DNA of 64,000 bases from a virus (IMGVR_UViG_2778261540_000003), one strand, 5' to 3'. Positions 29,113 to 32,025 are shown, counted from the first letter of the stretch. Numbers and translations: made by a program. The notes: a model not told the origin generated them from the sequence alone.

Positions 29113-30010
29113 GCACTGGAAAAACATTACTATTTATAAACTTTCTCGTGAGGCGGATCTGACCGACTTAGAAGATAAAAAGAAAATGATCCTTTTCACG
29201 CCATGCGGTAGTCAGGATATGGCCAAGTTCGGTTTTGTATCTCCATTTGGTGATAATTCCGAAGTTATCGCTATGCATGGAAATGGTTTTATCCTTGTTG
29301 AAGCAAAGCGCGAAACAAAAATTCTTCCCCCGCCGGTTATCCAGCGAGCTATTCAAGAAAAAATTGAAAAACTTGAGCAAGAACAAGCGCGTAAACTGAA
29401 GAAAACAGAGAAGGACTCCCTGAAAGACGAAGTTCTGCATTCTCTTCTGCCACGGGCTTTTTCAAAGTTTTCTGTTATCCAGGCGATCTACGACGGTTCA
29501 ACTAAACGTATCTATATCAATGCCAGCTCGCGGCAGGCAGAGGATATGCTCGCGCTTATGCGTAAATCTCTGGGTTCTCTTCCTGTTGTTCCCCTAAGTG
29601 TTGAAAATCCCATTGAATTAACGCTAACCGACTGGGTACGTGATGGTAGTGCTCCACAGGGATTTCAAATGGGGGATGCGGCAGAACTTAAGGCAGTGCT
29701 TGAGGATGGCGGTATTGCCCGAGTGAAAAAGCAGGATTTGGGAAGCGATGAAATTTCCACACACCTGGAAGCTGGCAAGCTCGTCACAAAGTTGGCACTC
29801 GACTGGCAGAACCGCATTAAATTTACACTGGACCATAACTTCAGCCTTACCAGCGTCAAATTTGCGGATGAATTGCTTGAGCAGAACTCTGATATTGATA
29901 GTGAAGATGTAGCGCAGCGACTGGACGCAGATTTCTTCCTGTTGACCAGTGAAATTTCGTGCCTGGTTGATGCTCTGGTAAATGCCCTTGGTGGAGAGGC
30001 TAAGCAGTGA
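29105..30010 (+). CDS. hrdC: RdgC homolog (recombination-associated protein)
   Basis: Start [16 protein letters not shown]...; near-identical blocks to E. coli RdgC ([53 protein letters not shown]). Confidence 0.85.
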
Positions 30011-32025
30011 AAGAGCTGTGCTATGGATCTGTTTGCAGTGGAATTGAAGCCGCGAGTATTGCCTGGGAACCGTTGGGTATGCGTCCTGCGTGGTTTGCTG
30101 AAATCGAGTCTTTTCCATCTGCCGTTCTTGCGCACCGCTGGCCCCATGTCGCCAACCTTGGCGACATGACAAAACTTGCCAAAAAAGTCCTGGCTGGGGA
30201 AATCGAATCCCCTGATGTGCTCGTCGGGGGAACACCTTGTCAGGCATTCAGTATCGCGGGATTACGTGGTGGGCTTGATGATGAGCGTGGCGCGCTAACT
30301 TTAAAGTATGTGGAGCTTGCAAATGCAATTGACGACAAACGGGCTGAGTCATTTCTCAAACCAGCCGTTATCGTCTGGGAAAATGTCCCAGGAGTCTTGT
30401 CATCGGCAGATAACGCCTTCGGATGTTTCCTTGCTGGATTGGCTGGAGAAGATGTGCCATTTGAACCAGGTGATCGACCTGAATCAGGAAAAAGCAACGC
30501 GTTCTGGCGGTGGGATGGCAAAACCGGTTGCCATGTTCCAAAGTGGCCGCAGTGTGGTTGTATTTATGGACCGCAGCGAAAGGTGGCCTGGAGAATCCTT
30601 GATGCCCAATACTTCGGAGTGGCACAACGACGCCGACGCGTGTTTGTTGTCGCAAGTGCTCGAACAGACCTCGATCCCGCAACGGTACTTTTTGAGTTCG
30701 AAGGCGTGCGCCGGAATATTGCGCCGAGCAGAGGCGAGGGGAAGGAAACTACCAGATATACTTCAGACATCGCTATCAGATCTTGCGATGATACAAACAT
30801 AGTTGCCATGGCACATGGGCAAGGAGGGGCTGAGATAAAAACCGATAATTCGGCACCAACTTTGACATGTAACCATGAAGCACCAATTGTATTGCTCGGC
30901 GACGGTAGAATGCGCCGTCTTACCCCTGTCGAATGTGAAAGGCTGCAAGGTTTTCCTGATGGACATACATTGATCCCTACGGAAAAGCGTAAAAAAGTTT
31001 CTTCAGATGAACTGGCATACCTTCGCAAAAACTCTCCTGATTTGAACGAAGAAGAGGCCGCAATGCTTGCAGCTGACGGACCGCGTTACAAAGCGATCGG
31101 CAATAGTATGGCGATACCAGTAATGCGCTGGATTGGCGAGCGGATAACCAAGGCTGCATGTCGGCAGAATGAAGGGCGTGAAACAAAAGAGCGAAAAGTT
31201 AAACCAGCGGCAGAATTCGAACGGTCCATATTCAAATGGGCTGGTGGAAAATTTGGTGTTCTGGAACAAATCTTTCGCTATTTGCCAGAAGGGAAGCGCC
31301 TGATTGAACCTTTCGTCGGTGGTGGAGCTGTCTTCATGAATGCCGGATACCAGGAAAATCTGCTAAATGATGTGAATGCTGACCTGATTAACTTTTACAA
31401 GACTCTGCAACGCGAGGCGCATTCACTTATCACTCTGGCACATCGTTTCTTCCAGGACTACAACACCCAGGAGGGATTCCTGGCAGTACGGAATGCGTTT
31501 AACAAACAAGTCTATGATGATTTACATCGCGCAGCGGCGTTTTTGTTCCTGAACCGACATTGTTTTAACGGATTGACGCGTTACAACCAGGCCGGTGAGT
31601 TCAATGTCGGTTATGGGAAGTATAAAACTCCGTATTTCCCATTACAGGAGATGGAAGCCTTCCTCGGTGCGGAAGGGCGGTCTGAGTTTGTATGCGGTGA
31701 TTTTGCAGCGGTGATTGAAGCTGCCGGAGAAGGAGATGTCATCTTTTGCGATCCGCCGTATGAACCGCTTCCAAATACAGAGGGATTCACGAACTATTCC
31801 GGTCATGACTTTAAGTTTGAAGAGCAAAAACGCCTGGTGTCTCTGTTGACGGATGCTCATCGTCGAGGTGCAAAGGTTCTCATTACTAACAGTGGCGCGC
31901 CAAACATCAGAGAGCTTTATCATGACAGTGGCTTCAGAGTGGAACATCTTTTTGCCAGACGTTCTGTGTCTTGTAAGGGGGACACTCGAGGTGTAGCTCA
32001 TGACGTTTTGGGTATATTGCTCTAA
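30007..32025 (+). CDS. dmt: Bifunctional DNA methyltransferase (C5-cytosine plus Dam-like N6-adenine)
   Basis: N-terminal C5-MTase motifs ([29 protein letters not shown]); C-terminal half aligns with E. coli Dam ([21 protein letters not shown]). Confidence 0.85.

Follow-up and report, generated by a model that had tools for sequence, protein, structure and literature searches.

Why would a phage-plasmid encode a DNA methyltransferase that joins a cytosine-modifying and an adenine-modifying domain in one polypeptide, with no restriction endonuclease beside it? This question is raised by the dmt gene in the 64,000-nucleotide stretch of viral DNA analysed here as a whole (hereafter the window), which alignment to the reference P1 genome (AF234172) identifies over its entire length as a P1-type phage-plasmid, running from about 36.4 kb of the reference through lox to position 805. 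An original prediction had described the gene as an orphan C5-cytosine/Dam-like fusion, had placed it in one element with several GATC-dependent sites that would read its adenine methylation, and had suggested that the less obvious C5 half may protect against host restriction. The fusion and the GATC-dependent sites are already known, as both have been annotated for two decades in phages P1 and P7, and dmt is ordinary apart from the cytosine target chosen by its short P7-type cassette. That the window departs from reference P1 exactly in this C5 target-recognition region was absent from the prediction. As an overall explanation, we consider it probable that P1-type dmt encodes two independent S-adenosylmethionine-dependent modules without a partner nuclease, of which the Dam half serves pac in lytic growth and the C5 half serves anti-restriction. 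Here, we will set out the evidence for each half, weighing alternative explanations where the evidence bears on them.

Organisation of the dmt gene and its operon

The dmt gene (30007-32025; this and all following features lie on the plus strand unless stated otherwise) is a single ORF of 672 codons encoding a fused C5-cytosine/Dam-type N6-adenine DNA methyltransferase. Its product matches both PF00145 (C5 DNA methylase; E=2.5e-36, 126 bits against a cutoff of 22) and PF02086 (D12; E=7.3e-57, 193 bits, aa 411-646) in Pfam, as well as the NCBIfam models TIGR00571 (dam; 251 bits, cutoff 115) and TIGR00675 (dcm; 116 bits, cutoff 101). Together with alignments and the GenBank annotation of P1 and P7, these matches confirm the predicted fusion. 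Database entries identical to the Dmt protein exist, and GenBank names the gene dmt in P1 and dam in P7, describing the product as "bifunctional" and its C5 activity with the word "perhaps". Three P1 records match window positions 29000-33500 at 100% identity, and nucleotide comparison outside the recognition cassette gives 97-98% identity to reference P1 and 100% to P1-type records. Compared with MH422554, MH445380 and MH445381, two 100%-identical probes lie 752 bp closer together in the window, placing an indel between about 14.6 kb and 29 kb.

Transcription of dmt is predicted to start upstream of two smaller genes. A putative sigma-70 promoter, Pdmt (28756-28785; -35 TTGTTT, -10 TACCAT), was transferred by alignment from the P1 annotation and directly adjoins the C1 repressor operator Odmt (formerly Op68; ATTGCTCTAATAAATAT, 28740-28756), which was found in the sequence and corresponds to the AF234172 annotation. 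The first gene of the operon, uhr (28828-29112), encodes 94 aa without a Pfam or PADLOC match and is followed by hrdC (29105-30010), a member of the RdgC family (PF04381, E=2.4e-98). The GTG start codon of dmt is preceded by a Shine-Dalgarno-like GGTGGAGAGG run and overlaps the TGA stop codon of hrdC, and this GTGA overlap couples dmt translationally to hrdC. At the other end, a perfect C1 operator, Oban-a (ATTGCTCTAATAAATTT, 32016-32032), overlaps the dmt stop codon, so that C1 operators flank the uhr-hrdC-dmt operon on both sides. From the position of these operators, we infer that Dmt should be repressed in lysogens and made in lytic growth. If Dmt is off in lysogens, oriR and cre in the prophage are most likely written by host Dam, and a methylome of lysogen DNA would miss Dmt activity.

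Among the neighbours of dmt, Pfam and PADLOC returned no nuclease or defence match, which bears out the description of the gene as an orphan without an adjacent restriction endonuclease gene. Downstream lie the C1 operator, tRNA-Asn, tRNA-Thr, a 109-aa ORF without a match (33201-33530) and an SPFH protein; a motif scan of all ORFs of at least 150 aa found no second methyltransferase motif IV in the window, and the PADLOC model that fits the Dam half best is named 'orphan methyltransferase'. Restriction nucleases are diverse and often missed by Pfam, and both uhr and the 109-aa ORF lack a family match, which leaves room for the idea that Dmt supplies the modification activity in a cryptic restriction-modification system, with a nuclease that is encoded elsewhere or goes unrecognised. 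We regard this as very improbable: besides the lack of nuclease or defence matches among the neighbours, the unassigned ORFs are very small, repression of the gene in lysogens would be a lethal logic for restriction-modification, and homologues in other phages have differing neighbours (RusA, a RecA-dependent nuclease, RdgC) with no common partner.

Several further features of the region deserve mention. Just upstream of the operon, on the opposite strand, UpfC (28374-28658, minus strand) matches a PAAR motif at 26 bits against a Pfam cutoff of 27, and a PAAR-like gene also lies close to a distant rdgC-dmt locus, L012. In place of the tciA/tciB/tciC region of reference P1, window positions 33552-34647 hold two ORFs, one for a small membrane protein (33585-33821) and the other for an SPFH/Band 7 protein (33802-34629). 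Inside the C5 half, the late promoter LPdam2 predicted by the P7 annotators is identical at 30995-31013, where it is a weak consensus match; with in-frame ATGs downstream at codons 353, 368 and 373, a separate Dam-only product from it is conceivable. The truncated dmt of AF234173 was considered as a sign of selection against the gene and rejected, as it breaks off within the Dam half, at residue 608, and is labelled in the record as a dmt(del)MB mutant.

The Dam-type half and the GATC sites

The Dam-type half (aa ~405-672, 31219-32025) aligns with E. coli Dam structures (E=7e-57, 39% identity over 262 residues). It contains motif I (FVGGGAV, 436-442) ahead of the DPPY motif (582-585), and the E. 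coli Dam residues K9, N120, L122, R124 and Y138 are kept as K410, N521, L523, R525 and Y539, while Y119 corresponds to F520 and the DNA-contacting P134 is replaced by G535. With a profile score above the cutoff, an AdoMet loop, DPPY and the GATC-reading residues, this half belongs to the Dam family (TIGR00571/PF02086); the E. coli Dam equivalog model NF008152 scores 245 bits, under its cutoff of 441, which makes it a family member and not an ortholog-grade match. Only three residues differ from the Dam half of reference P1, and methylation of GATC by this half is expected from the P1 annotation and a 2025 review (PMC12707154). Unlike E. coli Dam and phage T4 Dam of the D12 class, the Dam half of the window is fused behind a C5 methyltransferase, phage-encoded and repressor-controlled.

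Which sites might this half serve? GATC as such is not enriched in the window (261 observed versus 244 +/- 15 expected under a first-order Markov model). Two local concentrations nevertheless exceed chance, in agreement with what had been predicted for pac and oriR. The pac packaging site inside pacA (59117-59275) holds seven TGATCA/G hexamers in a 4+3 arrangement flanking the annotated cleavage position at ~59199-59208, and an eighth GATC hexamer of the cluster lies at 59298, giving eight in 200 bp (P~0.005). At oriR (26427-26481, given without strand), five GATCs match the five annotated Dam sites, and none of 100 Markov simulations produced five in 60 bp (P~0.03). The cluster predicted upstream of cre fared differently: its sites are present and match the annotation, but they are not unusual by count. 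The window includes only the first ~370 bp of cre, and the GATCs of its regulatory region (63232-63304) stand at 63232, 63285, 63293 and 63301, the last of them in the -35 element of the annotated P3cre. Three are annotated in the reference, and 63285 is a fourth site created by a change from GACC in reference P1 to GATC. As a statistical cluster, the trio of three GATCs in 20 bp was rejected (P~0.5). That pac, oriR and cre depend on methylation is taken from the literature and annotation, and the meaning of the cre sites does not derive from counts.

For pac, the dependence has been described directly: P1 requires GATC methylation at this site, and dmt is essential in Dam- hosts for that reason (PMC12707154). 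The site is the clear client of Dmt, mainly during lytic growth. The Dam half, which should be made only after induction or infection, would methylate adenine in GATC and keep the fast-replicating phage DNA fully methylated, such that PacAB can cut the seven-GATC pac; how much host Dam is present would then no longer matter for packaging. In the prophage, it is most likely the host enzyme that methylates the GATCs of oriR and of the cre promoter region. The picture of one element carrying both the writer and several readers of adenine methylation thus stands as far as Dmt and the three sites are all present, but in lysogens two of these sites, oriR and cre, most likely answer to the host enzyme.

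Three further GATCs lie within 20 bp (14503, 14516 and 14522) in the ant-kilA interval, which precedes the kilA-repL lytic replicon. This trio (window 14470-14560) is flanked by a terminator-like hairpin and a C1-operator-like TTTGCTCTAATAAATTT.

The C5-cytosine half

The C5 half (aa 1-~400, 30007-31206) was examined by alignment with M.HhaI, across 43 family members and by Foldseek. Its motifs follow the canonical order: motif I at aa 6-17, motif IV with the catalytic Cys78, motif VI as ENV (125-127), motif VIII as QRRRRVF (207-213), motif IX at 303-318 and motif X as GNS (365-367). In the M.HhaI alignment, Cys78 (in GGTPCQAFS) falls on HhaI Cys81, ENV on HhaI 119-121 and GNS on GNS, and the part aligned between QRRRR and GNS includes the stretch RKLHPRECARVMGYPD. 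Profile match, fold and the order of catalytic motifs I, IV, VI, VIII, IX and X place this half in PF00145. The AlphaFold model of aa 1-400 has a mean pLDDT of 71, with most of the catalytic lobe above 85, and a Foldseek search with the modelled half returned C5 methyltransferases or close kin for all of the top 50 hits, HhaI first (E=2.6e-11). As in M.HhaI and M.HaeIII, the ten-motif order, the PCQ loop, ENV, QxRxR and the GNS of motif X are present, and the recognition region with a conserved T-L dipeptide lies between motifs VIII and IX; unlike these enzymes, the C5 half lacks a partner nuclease, has CSGIE as motif I, and separates motifs VI and VIII by about 80 aa and motifs IX and X by about 45 aa. 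The absence of catalytic residues from either domain would have spoken against the prediction, and the alignments show both halves to be intact.

Across 43 homologues with ~60-97% identity to the query, the C5 catalytic motifs, including the CSGIE variant of motif I, are invariant or nearly so. The C5 half is under purifying selection, with a dN/dS of ~0.08-0.2 in the catalytic lobe, comparable to that of the Dam half (0.01-0.15). On these grounds, it appears to be an active cytosine-5 methyltransferase.

One position in motif IV sets lab P1 apart. Codon 74 (window 30226-30228) encodes Gly (GGG), as in every homologue examined, while the reference P1 c1.100 records AF234172 and AF234173, and only these, have Trp74 (TGG), turning the motif into 'VWGTPCQ'. 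G74W in lab P1 could reflect either a sequencing error or a mutation of the lab strain that disables the enzyme.

This substitution also enters the argument that the C5 half is a catalytically inactive vestige, or has otherwise lost catalysis, and only provides the Dam half with a DNA-binding or scaffolding domain. Lab reference P1 is viable despite G74W, motif I is the CSGIE variant and not FxGxG, and in the literature searched we found no report of m5C formation by any Dmt allele, P1 included, in line with the "perhaps" of GenBank. We nonetheless consider a dead C5 half improbable. Trp74 is limited to two lab-strain records, CSGIE is among the motifs that are invariant in the 43 homologues, and dN/dS is ~0.1. 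Two further observations against it come from the variation among P1-like phages that is described below, where recognition cassettes are swapped in frame and where an intein is inserted at the catalytic Cys, as is typical for inteins of functional enzymes.

Exchangeable recognition modules and the role of the C5 half

The window Dmt and the reference P1 Dmt (754 aa) are near-identical except between motifs VIII and IX, where the spacing is 89 aa in the window allele and 171 aa in the reference and the DNA cannot be aligned. The C5 target-recognition region of the window (aa 216-302, 30652-30912) is a single module, and nucleotides 30729-30912 have no counterpart in reference P1. Its short cassette is of the P7 type. 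Phage P7 Dam (AAQ07538, AF503408; 'hypothetical bifunctional DNA methyltransferase') shares with the window Dmt the length of 672 aa, the single-module cassette, the operon position and the flanking C1 operators, and the two proteins are roughly 95% identical, differing by only ~30 scattered substitutions. Phage P1 Dmt (AAQ14041, AF234172) likewise shares gene, operon and regulation, with C5 catalytic lobes that are 97-98% identical in nucleotides, and differs by its 754 aa, its longer and different recognition region and G74W in motif IV. In PLSDB, the P7-type cassette occurs in ~184 plasmids and the P1-reference cassette in ~257.

Further alleles extend this variation. SJ46 Dmt (807 aa) has a two-module recognition region, and in six P1-like phages, two or three recognition cassettes are combined with or without an intein, always in frame. 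The intein, a 341-aa LAGLIDADG + Hint element (CFTAG...VVHN, then Cys), occurs in the dmt of OP279344 (at positions 1439-2461 of the dmt locus), RCS47 and Ro157c2YLVW; its insertion point is immediately ahead of the catalytic Cys in the C5 half, and it is found with either cassette. The window dmt lacks it (site 30237/30238). The modules themselves are marked by an xPT[LVI] repeat, which is present in 1-4 copies among the best 120 homologues, with 89-344 residues between motifs VIII and IX. The window allele has only the commonest first module, and with one xPTL module it falls short of the at least two tandem modules that would suggest multispecificity; SJ46 has two, and as many as four occur in prophage relatives. 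There is weak similarity (33% identity over 49 residues, E=7e-4) between the P1-reference cassette and the part of a four-module enzyme that follows its first module. We propose that the C5 target of Dmt is set by an exchangeable cassette, and that the window allele is monospecific at most. Compared with all PDB sequences, the recognition region was matched only in the flanking motifs VIII and IX, and AlphaFold models it with low confidence (pLDDT 26-44), so no cytosine target can be assigned.

Palindrome usage in the window was considered as another pointer to protected C5 sites and set aside as a weak lead. The 6-bp palindromes GGCGCC, CTGCAG, AGCGCT, AAGCTT, GCCGGC, GAGCTC, CCGCGG and GTCGAC are strongly avoided, with 0-2 occurrences where 10-19 would be expected; avoidance extends to CTAG and GGCC but not to CCGG, GCGC, CGCG and TCGA.

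Judged by its sequence, the C5 half is one of a family of orphan C5 methyltransferases of enterobacterial phages, whose members have 1-4 recognition modules in tandem. In a lambdoid prophage, one such enzyme is an orphan flanked by a RecA-dependent-nuclease-like gene and rusA. A C5-Dam fusion at 62% identity keeps the rdgC-dmt pair on a 180-kb metagenome contig with ParM/StbA partition genes (L012:5115-8049). The C5 scaffold is fused to adenine methyltransferases of two Pfam families, PF02086 and, in relatives P0049 and P0099, PF05869.

What, then, is the C5 half for? Its most likely job, we infer, is that the enzyme, with its target set by the single-module P7-type cassette, would pre-methylate progeny DNA against the type II enzymes of the next host. 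The orphan family with 1-4 tandem modules, the purifying selection and the exchangeable cassettes together favour an active enzyme used for protection. Such protection would not be cost-free, as phage DNA carrying m5C would become open to McrBC-type restriction. The protective role suggested in the original prediction is thus favoured by the comparative evidence but still unproven.

Alternatively, an active C5 half could be regulatory, acting epigenetically on phage or host genes, or could serve a counter-defence other than type II protection. Orphan methyltransferases often regulate, and many of those in phages may do so (PMC12707154). The partner Dam half is clearly regulatory or packaging-related, and avoidance of many 6-bp palindromes already provides the window with a second anti-restriction route. 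Still, near-identical P1 genomes carry unrelated cassettes, and a conserved regulatory site would need to change with each swap; furthermore, in lambdoid prophages, relatives with up to four modules occupy the late-early region as orphans, which fits broad protection. We therefore hold a regulatory or other counter-defence role to be unlikely, although it deserves more credit than a dead C5 half, and keep protection against type II restriction as the preferred reading.

The closest parallel to such protection lies in Bacillus phages SPR, phi3T and rho11s, which likewise carry phage-borne orphan C5 enzymes that are expressed on induction, and whose arrayed recognition domains are credited with protection against several restriction systems (PMC12707154). 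Relatives of the window C5 half have 2-4 tandem modules, as the Bacillus-phage enzymes do, while the window allele has one, and unlike in the Bacillus-phage enzymes, multispecificity in the enterobacterial family is read from sequence repeats only. Tentatively, and with somewhat more doubt than conviction, we propose that this conserved scaffold with 1-4 shuffled recognition modules could be an enterobacterial equivalent, so far unrecognised, of the multispecific Bacillus-phage methyltransferases. If true, P1-type phage-plasmids would differ in anti-restriction specificity despite ~98% identity elsewhere, owing to P7-, P1- and SJ46-type cassettes, each of which may be accompanied by a homing intein at the catalytic Cys or lack it, and a disabling G74W in the sequenced lab P1 would explain the lack of cytosine methylation ascribed to P1.

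Transduction, Cre/lox and PAC vectors all make standard use of P1, and P1-like phage-plasmids disseminate resistance genes. Information on the cytosine motif of each dmt allele would help predict which hosts are open to each P1-like element, and would also show whether lab P1 has lost its C5 function.
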